From Alphaproteobacteria bacterium UBA6376 (lineage in GTDB: Bacteria > Pseudomonadota > Alphaproteobacteria > Rs-D84), in the NCBI GenBank assembly GCA_002437665.1, contig DJQW01000002.1, positions 80,364 through 144,363 on the forward strand: a stretch of 64,000 nt of DNA. Direction: 5' to 3'. The notes below the pieces were generated by a model that had not been told where the DNA came from, ran no database searches, and saw only the letters and a program-made list of their open reading frames with translations. The stretch's first letter is position 1, and every line of letters begins with the position of its first letter. The position numbers and the translations under genes were made by a program. Shown in pieces: positions 2,122 through 49,174 of this stretch.

Positions 2122-2136
2122 ACATATCAACAAAAT

Positions 2137-2163
2137 CCCCAGTTTTCTGGGGATTTTTGCTAC
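2137..2163 (+). terminator. Intrinsic terminator at the downstream end of the CRISPR array (AAAATCCCCAGTTTTCTGGGGATTTTTG).
   Basis: A GC-rich hairpin (CCCCAG/CTGGGG) followed by a T-run lies immediately after the last repeat and before the cas1 promoter. Confidence 0.7.
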
Positions 2164-2281
2164 ATAACAAAAAAATAAAACGCCCTATTCCACCAGTAAT
2201 ACGATTCGTTTTCTCTATTTTTTTCATCCTGTTGCACGCTACAAGTGTTGACAAAATAAAAAATCGTCCTATATATACAAC

Positions 2282-3181
2282 ATGCAAACAAATATTATAG
2301 AAATTTCTAGTGACAATCGCGAACTATCTGTTCGACGCGGCTTTTTGTGCATTAAAGAACACGGTTGTCTTATTGGCGAAGTACCGTTGGACAGCATATG
2401 TGCCATTATGACAACAGGACGCGCCATTATTTTTACACAAGCCATGATGGCAGCACTGTGCGAAAACGGGATTCCATTGGTCATTATAGGAAATAATTAT
2501 AACCCCATAGGCATAATGACGCCACTGGTTGGCCAAAATCGCCAAATGGCAGTGCAACACATTCAAATAAAAACATCACGGCCACTGGAAAAACAACTGT
2601 GGCGACGTATTGTCCAAGAAAAGATTCGCAACCAATCGCGGATACTGGACAAATACGGGAAAGACAACCGTATCAAACATATTCCTGCGGCTGTATTATC
2701 TGGCGACAGCAACAACATGGAAGGAGTTGCCGCCAGAATGTACTTTACCAGTTTATTCGACTCTGATTTTTTACGTGATCACAACGCCGGTGGAATCAAT
2801 GCGTTTTTAAATTATGGTTATGCCATTTTACGTGGTGCTATGGCACGTTTAGTTGTGGCCAGCGGTTTGAACCCATCATATGGTATAGAGCATCACAATC
2901 AAATGAACCCCATGTGTTTGGTTGATGATTTGATGGAGGTGTATCGCCCAATCATAGATGCAATCGTCTATGAAATATTCAACGGCACAGACAATCCTAA
3001 ACGTGAGCTGACGCCAGATGACAAACGAAAAATGTCTGCAGTATTAGAAATGAGCATCCCAACACGAGGCGGTGGAATTTCACCACTGTCCACAATAATG
3101 CAACGCGATGTATGGAACTTTGTAAATTCACTGAAAGAAAAGAAAAACAAATTGGATTTTGAAAATGTCATTAAAAACTGA
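2282..3181 (+). CDS. cas1: Cas1 integrase (type II).
   Basis: 299-aa ORF with a Cas1-like sequence and a conserved acidic/His region (...GIEHHNQMNPMCLVDDLMEVYRP...). It is adjacent to the array and cas2. A -35 TTGACA and a TATATA -10 lie upstream. Confidence 0.9.
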   Translation: MQTNIIEISSDNRELSVRRGFLCIKEHGCLIGEVPLDSICAIMTTGRAIIFTQAMMAALCENGIPLVIIGNNYNPIGIMTPLVGQNRQMAVQHIQIKTSRPLEKQLWRRIVQEKIRNQSRILDKYGKDNRIKHIPAAVLSGDSNNMEGVAARMYFTSLFDSDFLRDHNAGGINAFLNYGYAILRGAMARLVVASGLNPSYGIEHHNQMNPMCLVDDLMEVYRPIIDAIVYEIFNGTDNPKRELTPDDKRKMSAVLEMSIPTRGGGISPLSTIMQRDVWNFVNSLKEKKNKLDFENVIKN

Positions 3182-3503
3182 TGGACTAAAATACATGTGG
3201 ATGATGGTTATGTTTGATTTGCCGACAGATACGAAACGCGAACGTCGCGAGGCGTCCAAGTTTCGCAATTTTCTGCAAGATTTGGGCTTTTCAATGGCGC
3301 AATATTCGGTTTACATGCGTTTTACCGGCACACGCGAAAATTCACAAAAATATGTACATGCTGTAAAACGCAACAACCCACAAACAGGCGATGTAAACAT
3401 ATTGTTCTTCACTGACACGCAGTTCGGTGATATCATTCATCTGGACAAGGCAACTGCCCCAAGTGTATTAGCCACACGCCCAGGACAGTTACAATTATTT
3501 TAA
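3159..3503 (+). CDS. cas2: Cas2. The true start is possibly the ATG at 3195 (MWMMVMFDLP...).
   Basis: ~100-aa protein with the Cas2 N-terminal beta-strand motif (MVMFDLPTDTKRERR...). It overlaps the cas1 3' end, as is typical for a cas1-cas2 operon. Confidence 0.85.
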   Translation: MKMSLKTDGLKYMWMMVMFDLPTDTKRERREASKFRNFLQDLGFSMAQYSVYMRFTGTRENSQKYVHAVKRNNPQTGDVNILFFTDTQFGDIIHLDKATAPSVLATRPGQLQLF

Positions 3504-6500
3504 TCCCAATATTTTTCCAGACGGACTGACACAAACCTTGCGCGCTTTGTGTTCCTGTAACGATGTTGCGCTGGCAATCCATGATTTTGTATCAGCATCT
3601 TCCTTGGCAATGAAATGTGGACGCAGGTACACAGTGCCGCTGCTGTTCAATTTTTTTACACGAAAAACAACATTTACTTTATCTGTTTTCTCTATTGCAC
3701 ATTGATGTGCAACTGTTTCCACCAGCCCTTTTGGTAATTTTGGATCGTCTTTGGAAAATTCCGCCATTACCATATCATTTATACGCAAACTCATTATGCG
3801 CTTTGCTGTGGCATATTTATGACGCCACAGTGGTGCACCAGCATTTAATTGGGCGTTATAATTAGATAAAATCTCCACCTGCCAGCGACCACGCAATTTT
3901 GGATAGCGGGTATCATCATCACGAATTTCAAATATCTCTGCACAGAAATTATTACCACCAACATACCACTTGTACGCCTGCTTGGCAGCATCTTGAAATT
4001 CTTGCAACAAGTGTTTTTCTTTCTCTTGTTGAACAGCACGCAATTTTTTATCCACAATTCCACTGGCAACGCCAGTATTTACATACCAATTCAAATACGC
4101 GGCACGGTAAACGTCACGCTGTTTTTTAGTTCTGAACACAGGCACGTATGTCGTAACATCGACCCCCGTTTTATACATACGAACCTTGCGTATATTTCGC
4201 ATTGCACACCAATCCAAAAACTTGATTGCAATGTCTGGTTCTTCGTTTGCAACACCAGCATCATTCAAAAACATTTGCAGTGTTTTCGGATTCACATTTT
4301 TGAAATCCTTTGCAAACGCTTTTTTGTCTTTATCTGTTGTGGGCAGTTCTTCACGATGCGACATAACCGCATTGACGCCACATCCCCCATCTTCAAAACA
4401 TTCCAGATTATACGCCGTATCCTCATGCAAACATCCAACCGTACTATGTGCATCTTTCGGATTCTTTTGAGATTGACGGTATGAAATAATAGTATTCTCG
4501 CACCGCATTTTGAAATCAAAATAATCAAACCCAGGGAAAGGGGTATGCATATCAGATTTTGCATCAGCTAGTTTCCGCAATATGTTCTCATCAGTACAAG
4601 CAATGACAAAAGCATCAATCGCATGATGAATGTGATTGCCACGGTATTTGGATTCTTCCGCCTTATTCTTCCACCAATTCAAATGCCATTCATCGCGCAA
4701 ACTAGCCGTCAACCGCCCTGGCATACCGTTCACACGATTTTTGTCTGCACACACATGTTGTAAATATGTGACCGCCATACGTGTCATAAATCGCGTATCA
4801 TTCATTGCACGCGCAATGCACTCTTTGCCTTGCAGAAACACATCCATCGCCCCACGATTAAAACGCCATTTCGTAGCATCTGGCAAATTTTGAGCACGCG
4901 CAACCACATCCTCGTATTTCCATGGTGACTTTGGGTCTGAAAAAGCTTCATCTGGGCTACGGTTTCCTTTGAACCGGTTGGCAACGGCCGCAGAAATCGT
5001 TTTATTTGCCATCGAGTCATCAAGTGTACGTGAAAAAGGCAATATATGTTCTATTTCAAACTCTGGGCTAAACAGTTTTTCCTTACTAATTATCTCACCA
5101 GTATAAACGCATCTACGATCCAATGGACTTTTTCCCAAATTCTCCCACAACTTATATTTCTGTATATTTTCACGACAAACCCGAACGCCCATGGCGACCA
5201 ATTCAGTGGCAATACGGTCATTTTCACGCTTATTCGCGGCCTGTTGTTTTTCTATTTCTGCACGTTCATCTGCACCAGCTGATACATCACGCCCCATTTC
5301 AATATTTATTGCATATGGCTCGCCATCAAAACGCGCAATCAAATCGTTGACAACTGCGCGTAACTGGTTCAATGCAATGTGAACCGTGGCATTCATCGTA
5401 CGATAACGCCCCATCTTATCTTGAACCAACGATGGACGTAAAGCCATGACATCGCCATAGTATGGCAATGTATCTAAATGCACTATTCCCCTATCAGCAT
5501 GATCATAACCTGCTTCTTTTGCCGCAATGTGATACAAATGCCCCTGTTCCAAGAACGGCAACATTTTTTGCATTGCACACACAGACAAATTTGCAACCCC
5601 ATCTTCAAACGGTTGCTGAATTAATTTTTCTGCTTTATCTTGCGAAATACCATATTCATGCGCCAGATAATCCACCAAATCAGAATCGGACAATTCATCA
5701 TCATTCAGATGTGCCAAAACCTGCGATTTTACATTATCTGTACAAGCACGCCAGAAATCTGCCAATTCACATTCAGCAAATGCAAATGCCGTTGCATCAA
5801 CATCCATATCCTTACGCTTTTCAGATTCCAGATTAAATTTTGTATTACGTGATAAACCCAACAACTTCTTAACTTCCGCAAATGTTATCTTGGGACGCCC
5901 CGACTTATCACGTTTTACCCCACAAAATGTAGCCAGTAAAGCATCTTGCAACTTTTCGCGCTGTTCTGCGGTCAATTCCTTTATTTCGCCATTGTTGATA
6001 ATTCGTAATTGATTTATCTGTTGCAGAACACGAAAACGCTGAAACACAGGTTCAAATTTATACGCACGTGGCTGATCTAATTCAAACATGCACGTTCCAA
6101 TTTCTGGTGGCACCAACGGTCGCTGATGAAATATAGCATATTCAAACTGTTGCCGCATGTCATCTGACATATTTTGTACTGAACATATACGATTAAATTC
6201 GTCAAGGTACATATCACGCGTCGGATAAAGAGCACCATCTTTGATTTTATTACCATCAAATTGATCTGCAAACCGATAACGCTTTGAATCCACCTGAAAT
6301 TCACCCAAGGTTTTATCACCTATGGCATCATGCAATGCCAATGTCGCCTTTTTTAATTTGCCACCAGAATCCCCTCTGGTTTCCTTGCGATTACTTTTGA
6401 AACCACGGCGCAATGCCAGATGAAATAGAACACGCCCCAACTCTGCGGACGACAGTTTATCAGAAACCGCCCTTGCACGCAAAACATACGGATCTTCTAA

Positions 6501-6776
6501 TTTGATATCTGCACTAATATCGAAATCCAGACCATATTTATGAATCAATTGCAAGACACGCTTTTTACGTAGCAGTACGCGATCACCACGTCTGCGCATC
6601 TGACGATGTTCACGCCGAATAACATTAATTGGCTTGTGACTCTTCGCATCTCGCCCATCTGGGAATATACGCACCCCCATATCAACCAAACTCGTTATTT
6701 GGTCTGCTTCATTCAGTTCTACGACAGCCCACCCCAACGAGGTACTACCCAAATCCAAACCAATTTTATATTTCAT
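3495..6776 (-). CDS. cas9: Cas9 endonuclease, type II-C, 1093 aa. The RuvC and HNH motifs are intact.
   Basis: N-terminal RuvC-I motif IGLDLGSTSLGWAV (Asp8). HNH motif EIEHILPFSRTLDDSMANKTISAAVANRFKGNRSP. RuvC-III HHAIDA. The size is typical of compact II-C Cas9. No csn2 or cas4 is present. The stop codon overlaps the cas2 stop region by 9 bp (convergent). Confidence 0.95.
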   Translation of the reverse strand: MKYKIGLDLGSTSLGWAVVELNEADQITSLVDMGVRIFPDGRDAKSHKPINVIRREHRQMRRRGDRVLLRKKRVLQLIHKYGLDFDISADIKLEDPYVLRARAVSDKLSSAELGRVLFHLALRRGFKSNRKETRGDSGGKLKKATLALHDAIGDKTLGEFQVDSKRYRFADQFDGNKIKDGALYPTRDMYLDEFNRICSVQNMSDDMRQQFEYAIFHQRPLVPPEIGTCMFELDQPRAYKFEPVFQRFRVLQQINQLRIINNGEIKELTAEQREKLQDALLATFCGVKRDKSGRPKITFAEVKKLLGLSRNTKFNLESEKRKDMDVDATAFAFAECELADFWRACTDNVKSQVLAHLNDDELSDSDLVDYLAHEYGISQDKAEKLIQQPFEDGVANLSVCAMQKMLPFLEQGHLYHIAAKEAGYDHADRGIVHLDTLPYYGDVMALRPSLVQDKMGRYRTMNATVHIALNQLRAVVNDLIARFDGEPYAINIEMGRDVSAGADERAEIEKQQAANKRENDRIATELVAMGVRVCRENIQKYKLWENLGKSPLDRRCVYTGEIISKEKLFSPEFEIEHILPFSRTLDDSMANKTISAAVANRFKGNRSPDEAFSDPKSPWKYEDVVARAQNLPDATKWRFNRGAMDVFLQGKECIARAMNDTRFMTRMAVTYLQHVCADKNRVNGMPGRLTASLRDEWHLNWWKNKAEESKYRGNHIHHAIDAFVIACTDENILRKLADAKSDMHTPFPGFDYFDFKMRCENTIISYRQSQKNPKDAHSTVGCLHEDTAYNLECFEDGGCGVNAVMSHREELPTTDKDKKAFAKDFKNVNPKTLQMFLNDAGVANEEPDIAIKFLDWCAMRNIRKVRMYKTGVDVTTYVPVFRTKKQRDVYRAAYLNWYVNTGVASGIVDKKLRAVQQEKEKHLLQEFQDAAKQAYKWYVGGNNFCAEIFEIRDDDTRYPKLRGRWQVEILSNYNAQLNAGAPLWRHKYATAKRIMSLRINDMVMAEFSKDDPKLPKGLVETVAHQCAIEKTDKVNVVFRVKKLNSSGTVYLRPHFIAKEDADTKSWIASATSLQEHKARKVCVSPSGKILGLK

Positions 6777-6836
6777 AACTGTTTCCTTTCATCTCGTCAT
6801 AAATTCTACAAAATCAATATCTGAAAAGCAAATTAT

Positions 6837-6864
6837 TTGACTTATTATATTAGGACGCTATAAT
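6837..6864 (+). promoter_or_regulatory. Promoter for the tracrRNA (TTGACT-N16-TATAAT).
   Basis: Near-consensus sigma70 hexamers lie directly upstream of the anti-repeat-containing transcript. Confidence 0.6.
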
Positions 6865-6870
6865 TATGGT

Positions 6871-6990
6871 GGTGAAAGAAAATAACACTAAAATCAAGTT
6901 GGAATTAGATGTCTAGTCGTTAATAAGAACCTCTTGCAAGAGAGGAGATTTCACCATTAAAAACGGACACTTCGGTGTCCGTTTATTTTA
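6871..6990 (+). ncRNA. tracrRNA: tracrRNA: anti-repeat at 6899-6923, nexus-like hairpin at 6930-6945, and an intrinsic terminator hairpin at 6958-6989.
   Basis: TTGGAATTAGATGTCTAGTCGTTAA is complementary (one G:U wobble) to the first 20-25 nt of the CRISPR repeat. It is followed by CCTCTTGCAAGAGAGG and AAAACGGACACTTCGGTGTCCGTTTATTTT. It is divergent from cas9. The 5' end is approximate. Confidence 0.85.
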
Positions 6991-7023: not shown

Positions 7024-10000
7024 TTAGAAGCGGTATGATCCGGAAACCTTGATATTATGCAGTTGAATATCTTGGTTATACTGGTAACGGTAATCCAGAC
7101 CAATCTGCAAGCCACTGGCCGACAGCATTTCTACGCCACCGCCGATGTTCGCCCACATTGGATCGATATCAATATCATACTTTGTGAACGAATTTGCGAC
7201 CGAGAATTTATATTTCGCGTTGTCTGGCGCGCCCAACACATCGTATTCGATTCCGATTGTCGCATATGGGCGAATCTGGAACCATGCCGATGGATAGATA
7301 CGCTTTTGCGCGGTCAACGAATACCCAGGTGTAAAGATCAGATACCCGTCGGATTCCATGTCCATATAATCGTGGCCACGGGCCTTTTCCGTCAGCGAGA
7401 ATCCAAAGTTATACCCAACGCGCGCATACATATTGCCAACAACATACTGGTTCAGCCAATCATGCAGCAAGCCCCATTCACTGGTGAATGCAACGTCATA
7501 GCCCGTACCATCAATCGCGCCATTTATATATGTCTGGTGACGTGTGGTATCCAACACATGGATGTCCAAGAACGCATTACCATAAACGCGTGTTTTTTCG
7601 CCCAATGTCTGCATCAAATAACCACCCAGACCGATGTTGGTATCTGCAACCTTGACATCAACATTGCCGGCGATGAACGGATTTTCAACGGTATAGCCCA
7701 AATTCATAGAATCCGAGTTGTCCGCCGACATGTGCGATATACGCCCTGTCAACCCCAGAATCAAAGTTTCAGAATGCTGCCAGTCAAATCCACCCGCGAC
7801 GTTGATACGGTTACCATCAACGCGTTTGCCATCGGACACTTTCTGGTTGAACATACCAAATTCCGCATCAACCCATGCCTTTTTCAGGTTGCGGTTACGA
7901 TTCCAGATAAATTCGTCAAACATGCGGTCTTCGAATGAACGGAAATTAGTGTGTTCATTCAAGACAATGCTGCCCACGACCTGTTCGATTTCACGTGGCT
8001 GAACCAAGCGGCTGAAACGTGACAACGCCGTACCATCGCGATTCGTATTATAATCTTCCATACGCTTGTACAGTTCGTTGCCCAACTGTTCCAGATTTGT
8101 GCCACGGAATATCACAGGCAACATTTCCAGCGCATGACGACCATAAAATCCCTTGCCAGCGGCCGCGCCATCCAACATGTCGTCCAACGCGCCTGCGGAC
8201 ATATATTCGCCACTGGTGTGCCCTGGGGTGCGGCCAACAATCGGCTGAATCTTGAACACCTCTACCGGCCCACCAAAGCGTGGATCAAACACCAAATAGA
8301 TACTGTCGTCAATACCATCACCGTCGGTATCACGCACGGTCAGGTATGCAGAATCCGCATCAACCAGCGCACCGCTGAAATAGTCATAACACATCGTGCC
8401 CGTATTGTTGCACACAACAACGTTCAGATTGCGCAGTTTATCGCCCAATTCTGTGATGCCATCGTCTGCATGTACCAGCCAAATTGCATCGCCCACCGTT
8501 GCCAATTCACGCAACGCAACACCAATCTGATCGGTCGCATTTGCAAACCCAGTCGATGGATTACGCGACAGCGTCAAATCAGATGTGAACGCACCATCAA
8601 CCTGAATCAATGCACCCGCATTGCCGTCTGTGGCGTTTGTGATGCGCCCCAGCGTGTTATCGTCCGCCAAACTGACCGATGACCAGTAATTGCGTGTTGG
8701 TGCGGTCAGCACATCACGACGTCTGACATCAACGTACAGGCCACTGTCGTTATCAAACAGATAGTTGCCACCAATCGTCATTTCTTGCAAGCCACCAAAG
8801 CGCGCGCCGCCAGAAACATTACCGGTAACGCCCACGGTCAGGCCCGCGTTTGAATACACACGCATGTTTTTGACGTCAATATTACCCGCAACCGTCAGGT
8901 CAGTCGTATTGATGTCCAGCGCACCCGATGTTTGCTGAATATTACCGCCCACAATCACATTAGACGCAGACAGTGCATAACTGTCGCCGGTGATATTTGC
9001 ATCACGCACCGCGATTGTCCCAGCATAATTCTGGTACAAGTTTTTGACTGTAAATGCACCCGCAGATTTCATACCCGCGCCCGACAATGTTGCCGTGCCA
9101 TTATTGGCAAAGTAATCAACATTTGCCACATCCGCGCCCGATGCAATCGTCAAATCGCCATCATTGTCAACCGCACCCAGTGTCATACCACGTGCCGCAT
9201 TCAGTGTCAAAGTACCCTTGTTTGAAATGCCCCCAAATGCGATGCTGGAATTTTCAGACGAAATCGACGTTGTCGCGCCCGCCGCAACATTCGCCGCGCC
9301 GGTAAATGCGACCGCGTTTTTAACGTCGTATGCAACCGTACCGGTGTCGGCCATCAACGCGCCAGTGGCTGTCAAACTGCCCGCGGTGACGTTTGTGTTG
9401 CCAACAATGCTCAGCCCAGATGCCGCCGCACCTGCAACGTCAGATGCGTGTGTTATGTTACCCGCAACAGAAATCAAATCATCAGACGTGATTGTTGGCG
9501 CATTGATAACCGCACTGCCCCCCGACACGGTCAGCATCGCCATATTCAATTTTTCCGCCGAAATATTCAGTTTCAGATTTGATTCAATCGCACCCGCGGT
9601 AATAGAATCCGCCGCAACCAAATTCAATGTGCCGGTATTGTCAATCTGGCCAATGGTCAGGTCAGACGCACTGTTGATATTGGCGTTACCACTGCTGGCC
9701 AATGCGCCCATATCAATGGTTGCGCCGTTGATTGTCAATGTGCCGCCGTTGCTGGTCTGGCCACCGATTTTAGCGGTGCCCACCGCATCAATTTTAACCG
9801 TGCCATTGGTCGCCAACGCGCCATCCATTGTGAAATCTTGGTGTGACGTCAATGTCAACGTTTTACCATTGGCGATTGTCACGCTGTCAAAAGACATGCC
9901 CCCCACGCTGGTTTCCATGGTGTATTCGTTGCCACTGATAACCATTCCGGTCATCCCCCATGTCGGCGTCGCATCGTTAAACAACAATTCGCCACCAACA

Positions 10001-12129
10001 CTGATATCGCCAGTTGTTGCGGTCAATGATTTCCCAGACAAAACAATCAAACCATTCGTTGTGCCGCGATTCGTCAGTGATGCAACATTTGCATTCGCCG
10101 CCGCAATTTCCAGCCATGCGCCATTGGTTGCCGATGCCGCACCCGCAACATTCAGCGTCTGGCCCGCTGCACGCGATGCATCCGCCGAACCAAATATCAA
10201 ACGCTGGTTTGCATTTGTCGCCAACGCATCACCACCAATGTCCATCAACGACGCGTCCATACGCACCGTACGTGCAGTTGTATCGGTAACGCGAACGTCC
10301 CCGCCAATATTGATTATGCCGTTATTTGATTTCAACACAAACGCCGTTGTTCCGTCCGCCGCAACCGACATGTCGCCCGCATTTGCCGCGGCACTGCCAC
10401 TGGCGATAAAGTTACCATCAATTTGTACCGAATTTTCAACAGTCAGGTTTTTAACCGCACTGCGCAAACTCAATTTACCGCCAGACACAATCATTTTGTC
10501 CAGAATTTGAATATTGCCAATCAGTGCGTTCATTTCAACCGAACCGCCCAATACGTTCAAATTCTTGGCCGAAATATTGTCGCTGGCATTGCCCGAACCA
10601 ATAACCGTCATCGCGCCGGCATTATTTGTCAAATCGCCGCCAATCGTGATATTACGCGCCGTGATGTCCAAGACCCCTTGGTCACCCGCCGACGTGCCGT
10701 TCACAACGTTACCATCAACCGTCAGCGCACCACTGGACGACGCAGATGCCGCCACACGTAAATCACCAGTGTTCGTAACACTTGCCACATTTACTGTATT
10801 ACCGTCGATGCGCATTTTACTGCCATTTGTGTTGGAAACGTCGCCCCCAACAAACGCGCCACCCGCCGCAATCGTTGCATTTGCGTCCGCACCATCACCA
10901 GAAATCGCCCCTGTTGTAATACTCAGACCACGAATTTCCAACGTGCCCGTATTGCGAATCGATGTTGATGTGAAATTACCCGCACTGTTCAATGTCAATC
11001 CGGCAATACCGCCTTGCGGCAAAATCGACGCATTAGAAATCGCACCAAACGACATATCGCCCAGCGTCGTTTCAATGGTCGCCATACCCTGTTTCAGCAA
11101 GATATCGCCCGTCATCTGCAAAGAACCGGTTTTCAACGTGAATTTACCGCTGTCGGTCATATTGCTCCAATCAATATTCTGGGCAATTTTGGTCAGGCCC
11201 GAAATATTCGCAACAAACACACCACTGTTGACGATGGACGCGTTCTGGCCGTTACCACCATTGATGGTCAAACTGTCACCATTGATGTTCATTGTCCCAG
11301 AAGTATCTTCGTTTGTAATTGCGCCTGCAATCGTAATGTCCTTTGCCGACACAGTAACCGTACCTGCGGCCTTGTTTTCCAAACTGCCCGTGGTGTCGGT
11401 ATTGGTCAACGTCAAATTGCCACCCACCGTTACGTTCAGCGAACCCGCAGAATTTTGAATTGTGCCCGATGTAATATCGCCACCCGCTGTAATCTTGCCA
11501 GTGCTGTTCGCATTCTTGTATGTGAACTGCTTCATAGTAATAGAATCAGTTGCATCCAAATTGACGTCAGCATTTGCCCCCGTGGCATTTACATCAATCG
11601 CACCGGTATTGATGGTATTTGCAATGATGCGCAAAGTGTCGTTTGCATTTATCGCACCCGACGTAAATGAATCGATACCACCACCGGCAACACCACTGTT
11701 TGCCGCCACGCTCAGCGCGCCCAGCGCATTTATCGTGCCACCAATCGACACATCCATGCCCGCCGCCGTGCCGTTCTGAATGCCCAGCGTCATGCCAGAT
11801 TTAATTTCCAGATTATTACCAATGACAACATCGCCATCGGACTGGATGGTGAAAGACCCCGTATCGCGCAAAATTGCCAAATCGCCGTTACCGCCCTGAC
11901 CCGTGCCACCAACATAAACCGCGCCCGCGACATTCAAACCATTTGTCGTTGCCCCATCGCCCAAGACCAAACTGGTGTCCGTTGCGTCAATCGTTTTACT
12001 GGCATCGGTTGCGCCGATATTCAGCCCATCTGCAAACGTGGCCGCGCCCGCACCAAAAGGCATCAAGCAACATACAACAGATACTAATTTTTTTGAAAAC
12101 AGAGACATCTTTCTTTCCATTCCTTGCAA
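7024..12129 (-). CDS. Large autotransporter (type Va secretion) with a Gly/Thr/Asn/Ser-rich beta-helical passenger domain and a C-terminal beta-barrel translocator ending ...SGSYRF.
   Basis: N-terminal signal peptide, ~1300 aa of repetitive G/T/N/S/A-rich passenger sequence, and a C-terminal ~300-aa region with alternating aromatic/hydrophobic strands and a terminal Phe. Confidence 0.8.
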   Translation of the reverse strand: MQGMERKMSLFSKKLVSVVCCLMPFGAGAATFADGLNIGATDASKTIDATDTSLVLGDGATTNGLNVAGAVYVGGTGQGGNGDLAILRDTGSFTIQSDGDVVIGNNLEIKSGMTLGIQNGTAAGMDVSIGGTINALGALSVAANSGVAGGGIDSFTSGAINANDTLRIIANTINTGAIDVNATGANADVNLDATDSITMKQFTYKNANSTGKITAGGDITSGTIQNSAGSLNVTVGGNLTLTNTDTTGSLENKAAGTVTVSAKDITIAGAITNEDTSGTMNINGDSLTINGGNGQNASIVNSGVFVANISGLTKIAQNIDWSNMTDSGKFTLKTGSLQMTGDILLKQGMATIETTLGDMSFGAISNASILPQGGIAGLTLNSAGNFTSTSIRNTGTLEIRGLSITTGAISGDGADANATIAAGGAFVGGDVSNTNGSKMRIDGNTVNVASVTNTGDLRVAASASSSGALTVDGNVVNGTSAGDQGVLDITARNITIGGDLTNNAGAMTVIGSGNASDNISAKNLNVLGGSVEMNALIGNIQILDKMIVSGGKLSLRSAVKNLTVENSVQIDGNFIASGSAAANAGDMSVAADGTTAFVLKSNNGIINIGGDVRVTDTTARTVRMDASLMDIGGDALATNANQRLIFGSADASRAAGQTLNVAGAASATNGAWLEIAAANANVASLTNRGTTNGLIVLSGKSLTATTGDISVGGELLFNDATPTWGMTGMVISGNEYTMETSVGGMSFDSVTIANGKTLTLTSHQDFTMDGALATNGTVKIDAVGTAKIGGQTSNGGTLTINGATIDMGALASSGNANINSASDLTIGQIDNTGTLNLVAADSITAGAIESNLKLNISAEKLNMAMLTVSGGSAVINAPTITSDDLISVAGNITHASDVAGAAASGLSIVGNTNVTAGSLTATGALMADTGTVAYDVKNAVAFTGAANVAAGATTSISSENSSIAFGGISNKGTLTLNAARGMTLGAVDNDGDLTIASGADVANVDYFANNGTATLSGAGMKSAGAFTVKNLYQNYAGTIAVRDANITGDSYALSASNVIVGGNIQQTSGALDINTTDLTVAGNIDVKNMRVYSNAGLTVGVTGNVSGGARFGGLQEMTIGGNYLFDNDSGLYVDVRRRDVLTAPTRNYWSSVSLADDNTLGRITNATDGNAGALIQVDGAFTSDLTLSRNPSTGFANATDQIGVALRELATVGDAIWLVHADDGITELGDKLRNLNVVVCNNTGTMCYDYFSGALVDADSAYLTVRDTDGDGIDDSIYLVFDPRFGGPVEVFKIQPIVGRTPGHTSGEYMSAGALDDMLDGAAAGKGFYGRHALEMLPVIFRGTNLEQLGNELYKRMEDYNTNRDGTALSRFSRLVQPREIEQVVGSIVLNEHTNFRSFEDRMFDEFIWNRNRNLKKAWVDAEFGMFNQKVSDGKRVDGNRINVAGGFDWQHSETLILGLTGRISHMSADNSDSMNLGYTVENPFIAGNVDVKVADTNIGLGGYLMQTLGEKTRVYGNAFLDIHVLDTTRHQTYINGAIDGTGYDVAFTSEWGLLHDWLNQYVVGNMYARVGYNFGFSLTEKARGHDYMDMESDGYLIFTPGYSLTAQKRIYPSAWFQIRPYATIGIEYDVLGAPDNAKYKFSVANSFTKYDIDIDPMWANIGGGVEMLSASGLQIGLDYRYQYNQDIQLHNIKVSGSYRF

Positions 12130-13743: not shown

Positions 13744-13920
13744 TTTTTTCATAATCTATAATCGTATCGCCTGCTGTCTAGCCCCCCCCTTGTCATTGCG
13801 AGCGCAGCGTGGCAATCCAGTCAGTAGAGTTGCACCGAATGGCGCACAATATGTATTCTCTATTATCTATGCTCTAAAAAAATGTCCGCGGGTGGCGGCG
13901 GACACAACATCACCACAAAA

Positions 13921-14508
13921 TCACGCACCAGTACTACTGCTGGAATCTGGATTAACCGTACGTTCATAACCCTCGCCATTGTCAATATCGCATTCGGCAT
14001 AACAAACGTCATCAATCATCAAATACCCGTTGGAACATGTGTTGACATCGCAAAGTTCCCAGTCACCATATTTACTACATGTTTGTGTCCCAGAACCCTT
14101 TGTAGTTACACAATCCTGGGTATCCCCAGGGGTGCAATCTGGTTTTTTACATTTTCCTGATGTATGATTCAATTCATAACGATGATGCACATCCTCGCTA
14201 TTAACGTCCAACCACGATTCTTCAACGCATGTAACCTTGTATTGCAACACGGTTGTATCGTCGCAATAACAGTCAACACTAGAAATGTCGGTAATATTTT
14301 TTTCTGTTACTGGGGCATCGTACGAATCAATTTTACAATCGTGGGTATACCATGCTGCGCTACCTTGATTGTCATTCAGCGTCGGCCCGCCACACTTCAA
14401 CCTAATATAACTGCGTGATGCGGCATCGGCATCTTTACTGTGTATAACGCCCACGAATGCCAGCACCGTTGCCCAAAAGCGAAACCAAGATGATTTTATT
14501 TTTTGCAT
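13921..14508 (-). CDS. Cys-rich secreted protein, paralog A1 (195 aa, ~16 Cys).
   Basis: Signal peptide MQKIKSSWFRFWATVLAFVGVIHSKDADA. It is a paralog of 15832..16398 (nearly identical signal peptide, conserved C-terminus ...C.NGYL.IDD.CY.EC..D.G.G.E...SSSST.A). A terminator hairpin lies downstream. Confidence 0.75.
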   Translation of the reverse strand: MQKIKSSWFRFWATVLAFVGVIHSKDADAASRSYIRLKCGGPTLNDNQGSAAWYTHDCKIDSYDAPVTEKNITDISSVDCYCDDTTVLQYKVTCVEESWLDVNSEDVHHRYELNHTSGKCKKPDCTPGDTQDCVTTKGSGTQTCSKYGDWELCDVNTCSNGYLMIDDVCYAECDIDNGEGYERTVNPDSSSSTGA

Positions 14509-14527
14509 TTTATTTTCCCCCTAAATA

Positions 14528-14911
14528 TCAATATTTACAATCACCGCCAGAATATTGCCAATTACCCGTACTATCTTTGAATGTTTGGTAATCATAAGGC
14601 GAAATATAACACGCACCTTCCAGCAAAGGTTCATTGGGTGCAACCGGTTTCAGCGTCAGGCCGGTGTGCGGACTGCCGATAACATCGGCTTGCCATGTGC
14701 GAACCTTGGCTGTGCCACCACTGGCCAGCATCTTGCCAGGACACTTGGTACATTTGGTGTACATTGTTTCGCCTGACTTATAATCCATAAACCCTTCTGT
14801 TGCGAAATAGCCATCAGCGCACTGGCGTACAACACATCGCGTAACGGTACTGGCGTTTGCACCACCTGCCGCCAATAAAATCGCAAAACCACAGACAATG
14901 AATTTTTTCAT
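14528..14911 (-). CDS. Small Cys-rich secreted protein, paralog B1 (127 aa, 6 Cys in the mature protein).
   Basis: Signal peptide. The C-terminal 75 aa are nearly identical to the ORF at 15414..15803 (GGTAKVRTW..DVIGSPHTGLTLKP.APNEPLL..ACYISPYDYQTFKDSTGNWQYSGGDCKY), with about 90% nucleotide identity. Confidence 0.8.
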   Translation of the reverse strand: MKKFIVCGFAILLAAGGANASTVTRCVVRQCADGYFATEGFMDYKSGETMYTKCTKCPGKMLASGGTAKVRTWQADVIGSPHTGLTLKPVAPNEPLLEGACYISPYDYQTFKDSTGNWQYSGGDCKY

Positions 14912-14959
14912 ATTTTCCTTTCCCTTTTTTCGTCGGGCACAAAAAACACCCTGCCAAGG

Positions 14960-15095
14960 CGGGTGGTTGGAGGTTAAGAACTATAATTTACAGAAAATAG
15001 CGGGCTTATTCGAATATATCGCCACCCTCCAACCCGAACATAGATTGGAGGTATTTTTTGTCCCCTCGGACACTGTAAATTAGAGGTTCTTACGC
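14960..15095. mobile_element. MITE-like imperfect palindrome between the divergent Cys-rich operons. It has ~22-bp terminal inverted repeats (GTTAAGAACTATAATTTACAG / CTGTAAATTAGAGGTTCTTAC) and internal GGTGGTTGGAGG / CCTCCAACCC complementarity.
   Basis: The inverted repeats were read directly from the sequence. The size and structure resemble Correia/MITE-type elements. Confidence 0.45.
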
Positions 15096-15413
15096 CCCGA
15101 CATGGCCGCTTCGCCTTGTCATAAACACTCTAACACAGATAAAATTCCCACGCAACAGGAAAGTGCACAGAGCACACATAACAATCAAATACTGATTGCA
15201 AAAAAGACGTTTCCATTATACAATAATCCTGCCATTGGGTATTCTGATGGTTGGGCTTCACAACCCACAGATGGCGTCAGAGAAGACGAAAAAACTCCAA
15301 TCATGCACATGGTTGGAGACGGGTGGAATATATTGAATACACTCGGCTATCTATCTGTAGTTGTGAATCTCCAACCGCCAATTCTGGCGGTTTTTCTTAA
15401 AAAAGGAGATTAC

Positions 15414-15803
15414 ATGAAAAAAATACTAATTTTTGGGTTATCTATTTTGTGGATGCCATGTATGACGCATGCAGCATACGAGCAGGTGAAAATTTGTGCG
15501 ATTTTCCAATGCAACGACGGTTTTTATGCCGATAGTGTACGAAGCGATACTTATTTTCAAAAGACATATTACACCAGTTGCACCAAATGCCCAAGCAAAA
15601 CATTGGCGGATGGTGGCACGGCCAAGGTACGCACATGGTCGGTTGATGTTATCGGCAGTCCGCATACCGGCCTGACACTGAAACCGATTGCACCCAATGA
15701 ACCATTGTTGCGAAGTGCGTGTTATATATCGCCTTATGATTACCAAACGTTCAAAGATAGTACTGGTAATTGGCAATATTCTGGTGGTGATTGCAAATAT
15801 TGA
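15414..15803 (+). CDS. Small Cys-rich secreted protein, paralog B2 (130 aa). The ORF-track start at 15102 is probably spurious.
   Basis: An SD (AAGGAG) lies 7 nt upstream of ATG 15414. Signal peptide MKKILIFGLSILWMPCMTHAA. The C-terminus is nearly identical to B1. Confidence 0.8.
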   Translation: MKKILIFGLSILWMPCMTHAAYEQVKICAIFQCNDGFYADSVRSDTYFQKTYYTSCTKCPSKTLADGGTAKVRTWSVDVIGSPHTGLTLKPIAPNEPLLRSACYISPYDYQTFKDSTGNWQYSGGDCKY

Positions 15804-15831
15804 TATGAATTTTTTTTAGGAGGAAGATAAA

Positions 15832-16398
15832 ATGCAAAAAATTAAATCATCTTGGTTTCGTTTTTGGGCAGCGGTGCTGGCGTTCGTGGGCGTTATGCAC
15901 AGCAAAGATGCCGATGCGGCACGTAAAACAGTAACCGTAACATGTGGCGGCACACAAAGCACCGATCAGATTCATGTAACCAGAACGGAATGTATATTAG
16001 AATCGACAACAAATGTCCGTACAAGTTTGGGGGATGGTGACATGATTCAATGTTATTGCGATAACACGACATTGTTGCAATATCGAATGACGTGTTCAAA
16101 AAGCACGACCTATAACGAAAAAAGCGAAAGTGTGTACACAAACTGGTCTTTGTCACAGACCCGTGGCACGTGCAAGGCAGAATGCACCGTTGGTGCAACG
16201 CGTTCTTGCTCAACATCATCATACACTGGTACACAGACGTGCAACGTATTCGGTACTTGGAATACATGTGATAGAACGTCGTGCAAAAGCGGTTACCTGT
16301 TGATTGATGACACGTGTTACCCCGAATGCACGGTTGATGATGGCACAGGGTTTGAAATAACAATTTTTGAGGGCAGCAGCAGTAGTACCGAGGCATAG
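15832..16398 (+). CDS. Cys-rich secreted protein, paralog A2 (188 aa).
   Basis: An SD (AGGAGG) is present. The signal peptide is nearly identical to A1. The Cys pattern and C-terminus are conserved. A terminator hairpin (GTGTCCGCCACCCGCGGACAC) lies downstream. Confidence 0.8.
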   Translation: MQKIKSSWFRFWAAVLAFVGVMHSKDADAARKTVTVTCGGTQSTDQIHVTRTECILESTTNVRTSLGDGDMIQCYCDNTTLLQYRMTCSKSTTYNEKSESVYTNWSLSQTRGTCKAECTVGATRSCSTSSYTGTQTCNVFGTWNTCDRTSCKSGYLLIDDTCYPECTVDDGTGFEITIFEGSSSSTEA

Positions 16399-16439
16399 TT
16401 TTTATTATGACAATGTGTCCGCCACCCGCGGACACATTT

Positions 16440-17040
16440 TTATACTGGATTGTTTTGCATTAAATTCCCCTCTATTGGAGGGGGGGCCGCAGGACGGGGT
16501 GGTCGAGAGAACGCGTAATTATAGATGCGTGCTTTCTGACAAAAGACCACCTCCCCGCTACGCGGTACTCCCCCACAAGAGGAGAACTTTGTCCGCAACA
16601 AGAATGAGTATTACATTCTAGAAACTTGTCATTCCCGCGCAGGCGGGAATAGGGACTAAGCAGTGCGAACGTAGTGAGCCAAATACAAAAAAGTTGCGGT
16701 CTTTATAATTTTCGTAAATTGTACATAAACGAAAATTAGTAATTTCAGAGACCCTATTCCTGCCTGCGCAGGAATGACAAAGAGGCGTGCTGCGCAACAT
16801 TATCAACTGGATTGCTTCGTTACACTCGCAATGACGTTGTTTTTTGCATGTGTCGCCTGCGGGCTAACGCCCTTGCCGCATCCTGCGCTTCGCTTGGATT
16901 CATTGCGAGGAATGAAATGACGAAGCAATCCAGTAAATAAAAAAGTGCGCCGGTGGCGCGGCTCTCTTATTACCTGGATTCCGTGGTCGAGCCACGGAAT
17001 GACAAAAAGGTAAGTCCGCAGGCGACACATATGCAAAAAA
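16440..17040. repeat. Cluster of mosaic intergenic repeat modules (NIME/dRS3-like). It includes ATTCCCGCGCAGGCGGGAAT at 16626-16645 and ATTCCTGCCTGCGCAGGAAT at 16756-16775. It also includes TGTCATTGCGAG..GCAATCCAGT units in both orientations and a ~115-bp structured module at 16478-16595.
   Basis: Related modules recur at 13786-13817, 30270-30700, 33100-33235 and 48890-49075. Confidence 0.8.
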
Positions 17041-17131
17041 TCTATTATCTATTCTCTATTATCTATGCTCTAAAAAAAAACACAGGGGGCAAAAGCCCCC
17101 TGTGCAAATAGCGATTTAATCGGCACAGAAA

Positions 17132-21125: not shown

Positions 21126-21692
21126 CTATTCCGATTCTTCGTCCATATCTTCGTCATCGTCGTCGTTTTCAACGGCATTCAAATCTATTTCCTTTGGCAC
21201 GCCCAAAATATCTTCTATCTTGTCAGATGCGGCATCCAAATCAATCTTGTGCAAAACAGCAAATTCCTGTGCCATACGTTCCAAGGCACGCAAATACAAC
21301 TGGCGCGCCGAAAACGTCATTGTATCCGCCGCCGTACGACGCTGCAGGTCACGTACAACCTCTGCCAATTTCATGGGATCGCCAGAATTGATGTTTTCTT
21401 CGTACTGTGCGGCACGACGCGCCCAAATCATACGCTTTGCACCGGCCTTGCCCTTGGCGGATGCGATTGCCTCGTCCATCTTCTTGGCGGTGGTCAGCGG
21501 GCGCAATCCAGAAATTTCCGCACGTTCAATCGGCACGCGCAATGTCATATGATTGCGTTCAAATTCGATGACCAACATCTTTATTTTCTGGTCGCCAATC
21601 GTTTGTTCTTCGGTACGAACCAATTTGCCAACGCCCTGCGTTGGGTACACAACATATTGACCGGCCTTAAAATCTAATTTCTTACTTGGCAT
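21126..21692 (-). CDS. carD: CarD/CdnL-family transcriptional regulator with an acidic C-terminal tail.
   Basis: N-terminal CarD_TRCF-like RNA-polymerase-interacting domain (FKAGQYVVYPTQGVGKLV...). 188 aa. Confidence 0.8.
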   Translation of the reverse strand: MPSKKLDFKAGQYVVYPTQGVGKLVRTEEQTIGDQKIKMLVIEFERNHMTLRVPIERAEISGLRPLTTAKKMDEAIASAKGKAGAKRMIWARRAAQYEENINSGDPMKLAEVVRDLQRRTAADTMTFSARQLYLRALERMAQEFAVLHKIDLDAASDKIEDILGVPKEIDLNAVENDDDDEDMDEESE

Positions 21693-22413: not shown

Positions 22414-22842
22414 TTACTGTCCCAATCCCGCTGGGGTAAAGCGACCAATATTGTTAAACAATTCTTGCAATGCGTTCAGTTCAATCGCGGCTGGGATTTC
22501 TGTTTCGCCATCGGCAATCACAACATCTGGCAAATCGGCATCACGCAAGACCTGTGTTTTAACAACGCGGTCACCACGCACCCACGCCAACAAGACGGTT
22601 TTATTATCATACGTTTTTGGCAGCGGCCCGCGATAGTTTTCGTCCGCGCCATAATATACCCACACGTCATCACCATAGATTGTTTTAACCTGTGGCGCAC
22701 CAATTTTGTCCTGTAACTGGGCGGTGTTTTTAATTTCAGATGCCACCGTGTCCAAATCAGACGGGAAAACATACCCGCGGTGTTTGGTCTGGAACGTGCA
22801 CCCCGCCAGCGCGATTAAACAAATTGCGATTATTTTTTTCAT
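22414..22842 (-). CDS. Outer-membrane lipoprotein, BamE/SmpA/OmlA-like.
   Basis: Lipobox LAGC. The ~120-aa mature protein has a BamE-like motif (…IYGDDVWVYYG…). Confidence 0.5.
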   Translation of the reverse strand: MKKIIAICLIALAGCTFQTKHRGYVFPSDLDTVASEIKNTAQLQDKIGAPQVKTIYGDDVWVYYGADENYRGPLPKTYDNKTVLLAWVRGDRVVKTQVLRDADLPDVVIADGETEIPAAIELNALQELFNNIGRFTPAGLGQ

Positions 22843-30269: not shown

Positions 30270-30700
30270 AGTTCCCCCGCATTGAAAGGGTGGCGCACAC
30301 CTGTGCGACGGGGTGGTCGAGAAAGCCCGTAATTATAGATTGAGGTTTTCAGGACAAAAGACCACCTCCCCCTATCGGGTACTCCTCCACAGGAGGAGAA
30401 CTCAGTCCACAACAAGAACGTAGCAAGTTCCCCTCCGGTGGAGGGGTGGCGCGAACGCGACGGGGTGGTCTTTTATTTTGCTCGCGTTGCTCGCACTGCT
30501 TAGTCCCTATTCCTGCCTGCGCAGGAATGACAAGGGTGCTTTGTAAAGAAAATACGCAGTCCGCAGGCGACACACGTGCTAGAAACTCTGTCATTGCGAG
30601 GAATGAAATGACGAAGCAATCCAGTAAATAAAAAAGTGCGCCAACGGCGGACACACTCATTGCTCTCTGCTCTCTGCGCTTTGCTCTCTGTCACAGCGTC
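30270..30700. repeat. Second cluster of mosaic intergenic repeats. It has ~115-bp structured modules (1.5 copies at 30304-30480), ATTCCTGCCTGCGCAGGAAT at 30513-30532, TGTCATTGCGAGGAATGAAATGACGAAGCAATCCAGT at 30589-30625, and CTCTCTG short repeats at 30660-30700.
   Basis: Shows 80-95% identity to the modules in 16440-17040. Confidence 0.8.
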
Positions 30701-33099: not shown

Positions 33100-33235
33100 A
33101 GTGCTACGCAACACTATTTACTGGATTGCTTCGTTACACTCGCAATGACAGTGGTTCTAGTTCTTTTGTCATTGCGAGCAAGCGTAGCGACGCGTGGCAA
33201 TCCAGTTGATAAAAGCACGAATTGTCTTCATAAAA
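33100..33235. repeat. Intergenic mosaic repeat: two TGTCATTGCGAG...GCAATCCAGT units in inverted orientation.
   Basis: 33118-33155 is the reverse complement of the unit found at 49016-49052. 33168-33212 is a variant of the unit at 13786-13817. Confidence 0.75.
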
Positions 33236-48774: not shown

Positions 48775-48859
48775 GCGGGCATGGCGGAATTGGTATACGC
48801 GCAGCACTAAGGATGCTGTGGTGCAAACCTTGGGGGTTCAAGTCCCCCTGCCCGCACCA
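48775..48859 (+). tRNA. tRNA-Leu (class II, long variable arm) with an apparent anticodon AAG (A34). CCA is encoded.
   Basis: Manual fold: acceptor GCGGGCA/TGCCCGC, D-arm GCGGAATTGGTATACGC, anticodon stem CAGCA/TGCTG with loop CUAAGGA, variable arm TGGTGCAAACCTTG, T-arm GGGGTTCAAGTCCCCC, discriminator A. It is nearly identical in architecture to E. coli tRNA-Leu. Confidence 0.8.
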
Positions 48860-48889: not shown

Positions 48890-49112
48890 GTGCGCTGCGC
48901 GCAACATTGTAAAAAACTGGATTGCCGCGCGTCGCTTGCGCTCTGCTCGCAATGAATCCAAGCGAAGCGCAGGATGCGGCAAGGACGCAGTCCGCATACT
49001 AATTTCCTAGAAACATTGTCATTGCGAGTGTAACGAAGCAATCCAGTAAATAAACCAGTGCGCCATTTGGTGCACACATTATTTGAACTCTGAACTTTGA
49101 ACTCTGAACTTT
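48890..49112. repeat. Mosaic intergenic repeat modules downstream of tRNA-Leu. These are GAAGCGCAGGATGCGGCAAGG, GCAGTCCGCA and TTGTCATTGCGAGTGTAACGAAGCAATCCAGTAAATAAA at 49016-49055, followed by a 2x14-bp tandem repeat (GAACTCTGAACTTT)2 at 49084-49112.
   Basis: Matches the modules in 16440-17040 and 30270-30700. The tandem repeat was read directly. Confidence 0.8.
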
Positions 49113-49174
49113 AATAAAAACCTGTTTTTTCACTTGCCCGCAATTTCATTATTTTGCTAAGATTATTGACAAGA

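Follow-up and report, generated by a model that had tools for sequence, protein, structure and literature searches.

Tagged extragenic hairpins in an alphaproteobacterial genome and their probable kinship with the targets of Ssn-type nucleases

The 64-kb stretch of alphaproteobacterial DNA analyzed here (the window; all coordinates are positions in it) carries a mosaic array of short intergenic repeats at 16441-17079, and related repeats elsewhere. These are probably CGTC/TGTC-tagged extragenic palindromes of the kind that includes the dRS3/NTS elements of Neisseria and the Ssn-related motifs (SRM), the hairpins of Ssn nucleases, which would have accumulated in silent gaps between genes and been reshuffled at the hairpins. 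Their identity as a class of tagged, Ssn-related hairpins is well supported, the cutting step is proposed by analogy with published work on homologues, and the mechanism of spreading and shuffling would be as outlined below. The association between such hairpins and ssn genes has already been published (Chenal 2025) and was also found here independently; what is new within this known family are hairpin variants missed by the published SRM search pattern. The balance of the evidence leans slightly towards a further proposal, in which the variant termed module A would form a class of Ssn target in its own right, spread across phyla and paired with a separate nuclease clade, and the lineage would harbor at least two Ssn/hairpin pairs plus a class with an AGGG tail, with cassettes exchanged at the tags.

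Hairpin units of the window and their host

A systematic scan of the window for a (C/T)GTC tag followed by a stem starting with AT, to which two copies with a decayed tag were added, gave 12 units (six on each strand) belonging to three hairpin classes. The tag is TGTC or CGTC in 10 of the 12 and a degenerate ATTC in the other two. The dRS3-like class (TGTCATTCCCGCGCAGGCGGGAATAGGGAC; three units, at 16627(+), 16753(-) and 30506(-)) reads TGTC / ATTCC(C/T)GC / GCAG / GC(G/A)GGAAT / AGGG; its AGG(G) tail is present in all three units, and the AGGG is conserved in relatives (loci L079, L109 and L135). The 9-bp-stem class (TGTCATTCCGTGGCTCGACCACGGAATCCAGG; one unit, at 16975(-)) reads TGTC / ATTCCGTGG / CTCGA / CCACGGAAT / CCAGG, with a 5-nt loop. 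Module A (TGTCATTGCGAGCGCAGCGTGGCAATCCAGT; eight units) consists of (C/T)GTC / ATTGC / 12-21 nt / GCAAT / CCAGT ("ATTGCGAG…GCAAT"), has a CCA(G) tail like that of the 9-bp-stem unit, and is found as TGTCATTGCGAG...GCAATCCAGT in both orientations at 13791, 16808, 16898, 30589, 33122, 33167, 48918 and 49017. A stem of 8-9 bp starting with AT and enclosing a 4-5-nt loop is present in four units (the three dRS3-type units and 16975-17004), the eight module A units lying outside these limits.

Tagged hairpins with a stem of at least 8 bp number four in the window, against 0.08 expected from 100 first-order Markov simulations of it. The dRS3-type and 9-bp-stem units fold into strong DNA hairpins (roughly -8 to -10 kcal/mol, z about -4.5), and the region 16618-16786, in which units 16627 and 16753 face each other over ~100 AT-rich bases in a dRS3-RS-dRS3 layout, folds as one long hairpin (dG -37.8 kcal/mol, z -8.0). 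The 20-mer ATTCCCGCGCAGGCGGGAAT occurs once in the window and ATTCCTGCCTGCGCAGGAAT twice, with 0 expected of each in shuffled sequence. Both had been reported in an earlier note on this DNA: ATTCCCGCGCAGGCGGGAAT is present as claimed, at 16631-16650 and not at 16626-16645 (5 nt off), and the first copy of ATTCCTGCCTGCGCAGGAAT lies where the note had placed it, at 16756-16775, the second being at 30509-30528 and not at 30513-30532. The further modules described there are true repeats, comprising the eight module A units in both orientations and repeat copies of GAAGCGCAGGATGCGGCAAGG (at 16871(-) and 48964(+)) and of GCAGTCCGCAGGCGACACA (at 30556, with copies carrying two to three mismatches at 16849 and 17011). 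A search of Rfam gave no family at the gathering threshold, and an E-value scan gave only sub-threshold matches resembling miRNA precursors, due to the long hairpin. Searching the literature for the raw sequence of module A returned only primer noise.

All 12 units are extragenic and lie in five spacers with convergent or co-directional flanking genes; one of these spacers directly follows tRNA-Leu (48775-48859), so that both the intergenic clustering and the position beside tRNA-Leu noticed earlier are borne out. The main array lies between the intrinsic terminators of two convergent genes and is therefore probably an untranscribed stretch. The arrays occupy syntenic sites among core housekeeping genes in many strains, and the same locus is present in many metagenome assemblies at 97-99.97% identity.

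The host is an alphaproteobacterium and not a Neisseria, in agreement with the earlier assignment. The window contains a CarD gene (21126-21692) and encodes a CcrM-type N6_N4 methylase with a RAMA domain (62918-63994), and its EF-Ts is 100% identical to HBP26507.1, annotated at NCBI as belonging to a metagenome-assembled genome (MAG) of an 'Alphaproteobacteria bacterium'. A search of the window for the 12-nt DNA uptake sequence (DUS) in every neisserial dialect found none, and the single 10-mer GCCGTCTGAA fits the count expected by chance. No integrase, transposase, REP-associated tyrosine transposase (RAYT; REP, repetitive extragenic palindrome), prophage or phage gene is found among the genes of the window.

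A small predicted nuclease gene bracketed by such hairpins

The partner gene was sought by screening for any gene recurring between inverted units in the fetched repeat-selected loci (12,427 open reading frames, ORFs). One recurrent family emerged, a single-domain GIY-YIG protein of ~95 aa, the rest being ordinary genes (ETF, SPOR, HTH, SNase). All seven GIY-YIG ORFs among the 12,427 lie within 150 nt of a unit and five of them are flanked on both sides, compared with 18 of 1,653 ordinary genes flanked on both sides. In protein-first look-ups (n=6), where loci were chosen by the protein so that locus choice could not bias the outcome, bracketing hairpins were present in 6/6, in five phyla.

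The proteins are 91-102 aa long with Pfam PF01541 as sole domain; Tyr, Tyr, Arg, His and Glu are invariant, and the Tyr-Tyr spacing of 11 and Tyr-Glu spacing of 58 equal those of SsnA (Y6/Y17/E64). By domain, length and catalytic residues they are predicted Ssn-family nucleases. NCBIfam contains no specific model for them, and they have distant similarity only to solved UPF0213/YhbQ-type proteins (E 0.02).

P0019, from gut alphaproteobacteria including UMGS860, is encoded at one conserved site in >10 strains, with a module A unit ~50 nt before the start codon, a terminator and an inverted module A after the stop, and outer modules that differ by strain. Module A dimers lie on both sides of the genes for P0136 (Campylobacter sp.) and P0110 (from an organism reading TGA as sense), and in Winogradskyella (P0096) there is one module A dimer upstream, the next gene overlapping the stop. 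P0143, from a second clade of gut alphaproteobacteria (also at L152), is associated with a class having a 9-bp stem, a CTTGA loop and a CCAGG tail, and P0252, from a Zixibacteria MAG, with an 8-bp stem/GAAA loop class that includes the canonical CGTC / ATTCCAGC / GAAA / GCTGGAAT / CCA. Over all loci, ssn is bracketed by module A in L232-L241, L242, L243, L244-L249, L068, L070, L184, L211 and L220, by the 9-bp-stem class in L152 and L250-L255, and by the 8-bp stem/GAAA loop class in L256, making module A the class most consistently found around Ssn homologues in this sample. Each nuclease clade is thus bracketed by its own hairpin class (P0019-like proteins by module A, L152/P0143 by the 9-bp stem/CTTGA loop class, P0252 by the 8-bp stem/GAAA loop class), and therefore nuclease clade and hairpin class co-vary. 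For the AGGG-tailed dRS3-like class no nuclease is assignable, the bracketing of ssn having been found for the other classes.

The link to the window comes from close relatives of its host, which have a pair of small GIY-YIG paralogues, each occupying a fixed position in the chromosome and having its own hairpin type around it in inverted copies. A single loop base distinguishes window unit 16975-17004 from the hairpin immediately upstream of the L152 ssn paralogue, and unit 13791-13819 differs by one base from the hairpin directly upstream of the P0019 ssn in L232-L241. The ssn-bearing relatives share 95-100% identical modules with the window.

Several features of these ssn loci were observed in passing. 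The P0110 contigs (L244-L249; GC 0.39) have an in-frame TGA at a conserved position of the Ssn homologue, and TGA is therefore probably a sense codon in their host (code 25 or 4); they carry one to three module A dimers on each side of the gene, in strain-dependent number. In L250-L255, the region 3' of the ssn paralogue contains long arrays with spacers of 620-1010 nt, half-site-like ...CCCAGGATGACA... repeats and repeated copies of the ssn leader region, again strain-dependent, which suggests repeated partial duplication beside the nuclease gene.

The distribution of module A was surveyed by scanning 185,579 species genomes for TCATTGCGAG-N8-30-GCAATCCAGT, which gave at least 120 loci against an estimated chance expectation of ~25 matches. 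The matches listed include many Alphaproteobacteria (Bradyrhizobium, Sphingomonas, Methylobacterium, Rickettsiales) together with Legionellales, Coxiellaceae, a Neisseriaceae MAG, Bacteroidales, Campylobacteraceae, Spirochaetes, Elusimicrobia and candidate-phyla lineages, and are often inverted pairs 10-25 nt apart. In 134 listed copies from ~100 genomes, the two bases preceding the pattern-forced TCATT are CG in 105 (78%) and TG in 22 (16%); these bases are not forced by the pattern, and the CGTC/TGTC tag is therefore confirmed independently. A metagenome scan with a lineage-specific 19-mer found, among the matches listed, several copies on single large contigs. The modules thus occur on many large contigs and in many taxa and are therefore dispersed, so that the possibility raised beforehand, of nothing more than local duplication, does not hold. 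In the Neisseriaceae MAG RGIG3783 (roe deer; L007, L053), module A lies beside sequences of DUS dialect (TTCAGGCTGCCTGAA / TTCAGGCAGCCTGAA), placing module A also in Neisseriaceae with non-canonical DUS.

The proposal that module A is a separate class would rest on its bracketing of Ssn homologues, 53-60% identical, in Alphaproteobacteria, Campylobacterota, Bacteroidota and the TGA-as-sense organism, and on its position outside both the four described CGTC families and the SRM string, from which it is set apart by their published definitions. If it holds, the number of genomes with SRM has been put too low in the published counts, and new cutting specificities for ssDNA (single-stranded DNA) are available.

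Relation to known repeat systems and competing explanations

The CGTC-tagged REP superfamily was described by Di Nocera (2013, PMC3733652) as predominating in Alphaproteobacteria and occurring in several phyla, with a CGTC, TGTC or CCTC tag, an AT-start stem of 8-9 bp, a 4-5-nt loop and CCA as tail; no dedicated transposase was found for it, and its CGTC-1 elements in Neisseria are the dRS3 repeats. The window shares with it the CGTC/TGTC tags, the AT-start stems, the CCA tail of module A and the 9-bp-stem unit and the location in spacers between convergent or co-directional genes, and its 8-bp/4-nt units fit CGTC-1 and its 9-bp/5-nt unit fits CGTC-3/4. By contrast, module A, the most abundant class here, lies outside the lengths set there for stem and loop, the tail of the dRS3-like class is AGGG, and the window units are clustered and interleaved with other modules, which according to the same study is rare outside Neisseria and Wolbachia. 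The earlier note had considered convergent evolution or horizontal spread of a dRS3-associated repeat system; no displaced Neisseria system is present and convergence is not required, as dRS3 is the Neisseria member of a family that is mainly alphaproteobacterial, and "Neisseria repeats" in an alphaproteobacterium are therefore expected and no longer an anomaly.

The biochemistry of such hairpins was reported by Chenal (2025, Nat Commun, PMC11893778). Approximately half of the dRS3 copies are oriented NTS elements, CGTCATTCCCGCGMAVGCGGGAATCYRG, bound only in single-stranded form by SsnA, a 94-aa GIY-YIG (cd10448), site-specific single-strand DNase that cuts a few bases upstream and is without action on RNA; cutting depends on the three bases upstream of the palindrome, and binding on a C just after it. 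Homologues of ssnA occur across phyla, with at least one SRM nearby in 71% and SRMs on both sides in 42%. Natural transformation of the meningococcus with DNA that carries NTS is restrained by this system, and the layout NTS-ssnA-NTS, with inverted copies, is like that of an insertion sequence (IS), suggesting a domesticated element. The window units resemble this system in being oriented, extragenic and clustered hairpins that have a GTC tag on their upstream side and end in a short conserved tail, and the relatives resemble it in having a ~95-aa single-domain GIY-YIG gene bracketed by inverted copies, with the Tyr/Tyr/Glu spacing of SsnA. They differ from it in the 5-bp stem and variable 12-21-nt interior of module A and in the A, not C, of the dRS3-like class; the host is a gut alphaproteobacterium whose lineage has at least two ssn paralogues.

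The kinship with neisserial dRS3 and with the intergenic mosaic elements of Neisseria (NIMEs; Parkhill 2000, Bentley 2007, PMC1797815) that the earlier note had proposed stands: the unit at 16631-16650 is the commonest meningococcal dRS3 20-mer, the same 20-mer as the target consensus of the Nf1 phage, and 16627-16779 is a dRS3-spacer-dRS3 arrangement, in which inverted 20-bp dRS3-type units flank a ~100-nt AT-rich spacer. As in NIMEs, several repeat families are mixed within arrays, and syntenic arrays vary between strains. NIMEs, however, are defined by ATTCCC-N8-GGGAAT flanking a 50-150-bp RS, in hundreds of copies, in Neisseria, and the window has a single such unit (16627-16779), with one exact and two near dRS3 units in 64 kb, a far lower density than the meningococcal ~1 per 3 kb; its remaining modules are different, it contains no DUS or Correia elements, and its host is not a Neisseria. 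Shared with REPIN-RAYT systems and the bacterial interspersed mosaic elements (BIMEs) of E. coli are doublets of hairpins, clusters of mosaic structure and a nuclease gene that is present in single copy, inherited vertically and enclosed by repeats of its own; the differences are the tag (GTAG there, CGTC here), the enzyme (HUH/Y1 there, GIY-YIG here) and the lack of a detected RAYT.

Turnover of whole units is visible between strains. In a strain 99.4-99.96% identical in the flanks, the 36 nt at 17005-17040 are replaced by a 243-nt block that combines module A with a dRS3-type unit and a portion of module C, and the right junction of this block coincides exactly with the TGTC tag of the following unit. 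Strain L004 (97-98% identity) has a module A hairpin in place of the window's dRS3-type hairpin at 30509, followed by identical sequence, and lacks the entire module A dimer of the tsf-tyrS spacer. Such cassette swaps are seen at 97-99.9% identity. These whole-cassette differences between near-identical strains show that the hairpin classes are interchangeable cassettes and that the arrays are dynamic, as has likewise been described for NIME arrays, whose content at syntenic sites varies between strains (PMC1797815).

Each unit comprises an unpaired (C/T)GTC tag, an AT-start stem, a freely variable loop and a short tail, which is AGGG in the dRS3-like class and otherwise CCAG. In the proposed mechanism, when the DNA becomes single-stranded, the hairpin would form and be bound by a ~95-aa Ssn-family GIY-YIG nuclease, as known for homologues, and the strand would then be cut a few bases upstream of the tag, as in the published biochemistry. 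The dispersed units may be non-autonomous copies or derivatives of a hairpin-ssn-hairpin element that have accumulated in transcriptionally silent gaps between convergent terminators, and cutting followed by repair, or recombination, at the hairpins may shuffle whole cassettes, which would account for both the mosaic arrays and the differences between strains.

Some observations weigh against this explanation. There is no ssn gene in the 64-kb window, the gene being seen only in relatives whose modules are near-identical. The published SRM string and NTS match 0/12 window units, and the sole SRM-string match in the window (22567-22597, in coding DNA) is due to chance. The string, HGTCWYN(0-2)YYVSBRHN(0-5)WNVSBRGN(0-2)RNCYNB, is a heuristic derived from 29 genomes and not a functional definition; module A misses it because of the TGC after GTCAT, and the dRS3-like class solely because A replaces the critical C. 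This A stands in all three dRS3-like units where meningococcal SsnA needs C for binding, and therefore they may belong to some other nuclease or be orphans. Module A has a 5-bp Watson-Crick stem, for which nearest-neighbor rules predict a weak fold. Finally, ATTCCCGCGCAGGCGGGAATC, the commonest meningococcal 21-mer, has been linked by Bertels and Rainey to a Group 2 RAYT, NMAA_0235.

The last point introduces a different explanation, in which the units are REPINs, i.e. inverted REP doublets copied by a RAYT, like the neisserial population of Bertels and Rainey, whose seed is identical. The doublet architecture and the long-hairpin fold fit this, yet the gene consistently bracketed is ssn and not a RAYT, Alphaproteobacteria have few or no Y1 genes according to the literature, and no RAYT bracketed by CGTC repeats was found in any species by Di Nocera (2013, PMC3733652). 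A phmmer search with E. coli RayT (E up to 10) found none in the window, 120 genome loci and 104 metagenome loci (~1.6 Mb), a search of low power because there is only one RAYT per genome. We therefore regard REPINs as unlikely. The earlier note had envisaged a cognate tyrosine recombinase or REP-associated transposase; with the RAYT search negative and ssn as the gene between the hairpins in relatives, this expectation is not upheld. Nor does its notion of a phage-integration-linked system find support, the partner being a GIY-YIG Ssn. A related reading, in which a phage or an IS110/IS1111-type recombinase would use the units as attachment or target sites, in the way that Nf filamentous phages use dRS3, draws on the identity of 16631-16650 to the dRS3/Nf1 target consensus and on the known insertion of IS110-family elements into REPs. 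It has against it the absence of integrase, transposase and phage genes from the window and the placement of the arrays, which in many strains lie at syntenic sites among core housekeeping genes; moreover, target use by phage or IS would be secondary and leave the spread of the repeats unexplained, making this reading very unlikely.

We consider it just as improbable that the units act at the RNA level, as terminators, 3'-end stabilizers of mRNA or small RNA genes. They are extragenic hairpins 3' of genes, and some of the GC hairpins score as terminator-like, but the main array lies outside both convergent intrinsic terminators, the units are equally divided between the strands, no Rfam family reaches threshold, and meningococcal SsnA is inactive on RNA (PMC11893778). 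That the likeness to dRS3 reflects Neisseriaceae contamination or chance convergence is scarcely credible: 20 contiguous nt do match the meningococcal master sequence exactly, but this reading is refuted by the alphaproteobacterial marker genes, including an EF-Ts identical to an alphaproteobacterial MAG protein, by the lack of any DUS dialect in the window, and by the recurrence of the same loci in many independent assemblies, and the tag-stem-tail architecture is common to the whole CGTC superfamily. Origin of the DNA from a member of the Neisseriaceae, which the earlier note had kept in view, is contradicted by the same DUS, marker and EF-Ts results.

First described as late as 2025, the Ssn/SRM system is under development as a tool for site-defined cutting of ssDNA. 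The hairpin classes of this lineage, each apparently with its own small nuclease, are candidates for new specificities, and would offer a natural example of a genome in which several nuclease/hairpin pairs coexist, while turnover of cassettes can be seen between strains.

Layout of the arrays and neighboring features

The main array (16441-17079) is a NIME/BIME-like mosaic between two convergent terminators. Its left edge is the intrinsic terminator (16412-16438(+); an 11-bp stem, then a T run) of the upstream gene at 15832-16398. This is followed by module C (16463-16604(+)), composed of CCCCTC-N-GAGGGG hairpins and GGGGTGGTC...GACCACC inverted repeats without a REP tag, with a 75% identical copy at 30307-30418. 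The first dRS3-type unit (16627-16653(+); TGTC / ATTCCCGC / GCAG / GCGGGAAT / AGG) has an 8-bp stem and a 4-nt loop (dG -9.6 kcal/mol, z -4.7); its conserved module extends to 16688 and has an inverted 64-nt copy at 30471-30534. An AT-rich, RS-like spacer (16654-16752) separates it from the inverted dRS3-type unit at 16753-16779(-) (TGTC / ATTCCTGC / GCAG / GCAGGAAT / AGG), beyond which lie a module A unit (16808-16836(-); CGTC / ATTGC / GAGTGTAACGAA / GCAAT / CCA), the module GAAGCGCAGGATGCGGCAAGG (16871-16891(-); exact second copy at 48964-48984) and a module A unit with the degenerate tag ATTC (16898-16934(+)), after which an AAATAAA linker leads to a small GC hairpin (16946-16960). The 9-bp stem/5-nt loop unit of CGTC-3/4 architecture (16975-17004(-); tail CCA) precedes the 36-nt segment that is exchanged between strains (17005-17040, containing GTCCGCAGGCGACACA) and a periodic short-repeat tail (17040-17075; TCTATTATCTATTCTCTATTATCTATGCTCT), which recurs at 13857-13880. 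The right edge is the intrinsic terminator of the minus-strand gene (17080-17105(-)). The region 16367-17111 also contains spurious small ORFs with peptide signatures typical of these hairpins (PIPACAGMT, LDCFVTLAMT, VIPWLDHGIQ, WIASSFHSSQ). Such ORFs are a likely source of false 'hypothetical proteins' in annotations; hairpin arrays yield many of them and should be masked.

In the other spacers, a module A unit lies at 13791-13819(+) (TGTC / ATTGC / GAGCGCAGCGTG / GCAAT / CCA). Module C copies at 30280-30470(+) are followed by the third dRS3-type unit (30506-30532(-), within the extended 64-nt module 30471-30534), the module GCAGTCCGCAGGCGACACA (30556-30574(+)) and a module A unit (30589-30623(+)) that has CTAGAAAC before it and a GC hairpin and periodic tail (to ~30690) after it. 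The tsf-tyrS spacer contains a tag-to-tag module A dimer (left half 33122-33150(-), right half 33167-33204(+)). Just 3' of tRNA-Leu are a module A unit with a degenerate tag (48918-48957(-)) and, further on, another (49017-49045(+)) followed by a GC hairpin and a TGAACT-type periodic tail.

Module C is a second repeat family without a REP tag, TTCCCCTC-N4-GGAGGGG followed by GGGGTGGTC...GACCACC; besides 16463-16604 and 30280-30470 in the window, it occurs at L184, L220, L251 and L254 beside the ssn loci of relatives. Periodic tails (TATTCTCTATTATCTATGCTCT, TTGCTCTCTGCTCTCTGCGC, TTGAACTCTGAACTTTGAAC) lie at the outer array edges (13857-13880, 17040-17075, 30650-30690 and 49085-49115), and in one strain the TGAACT tail stands at the site of the window's hairpin dimer.

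Directly adjoining the main array is a mirror-image duplication (13921-16398; arms 14419-14761 and 15570-15921, 86-92% complementary), carrying two paralogous gene pairs for Cys-rich proteins with signal peptides (195/188 aa and 127/233 aa) that have 0 Pfam and 0 NCBIfam matches. Two very long ORFs (7024-12129(-), 1701 aa; 49154-52195(+), 1013 aa) are likewise without any Pfam match. At the start of the window (1-6939) there is a CRISPR-Cas locus, in which the array extends beyond the window start and ends at 2122, with at least 32 copies of the 36-nt repeat GTTGCGGCTAGACATCTAATTCCAATCTGATATAAT and spacers of 30 nt. It is followed by cas1 (2282-3181(+)), cas2 (3159-3503(+)) and cas9 (3495-6776(-), 1093 aa), and by an anti-repeat at 6876-6939 that is a likely tracrRNA. 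The locus resembles type II-C, with an unusual convergent arrangement of cas9 with cas1-cas2.

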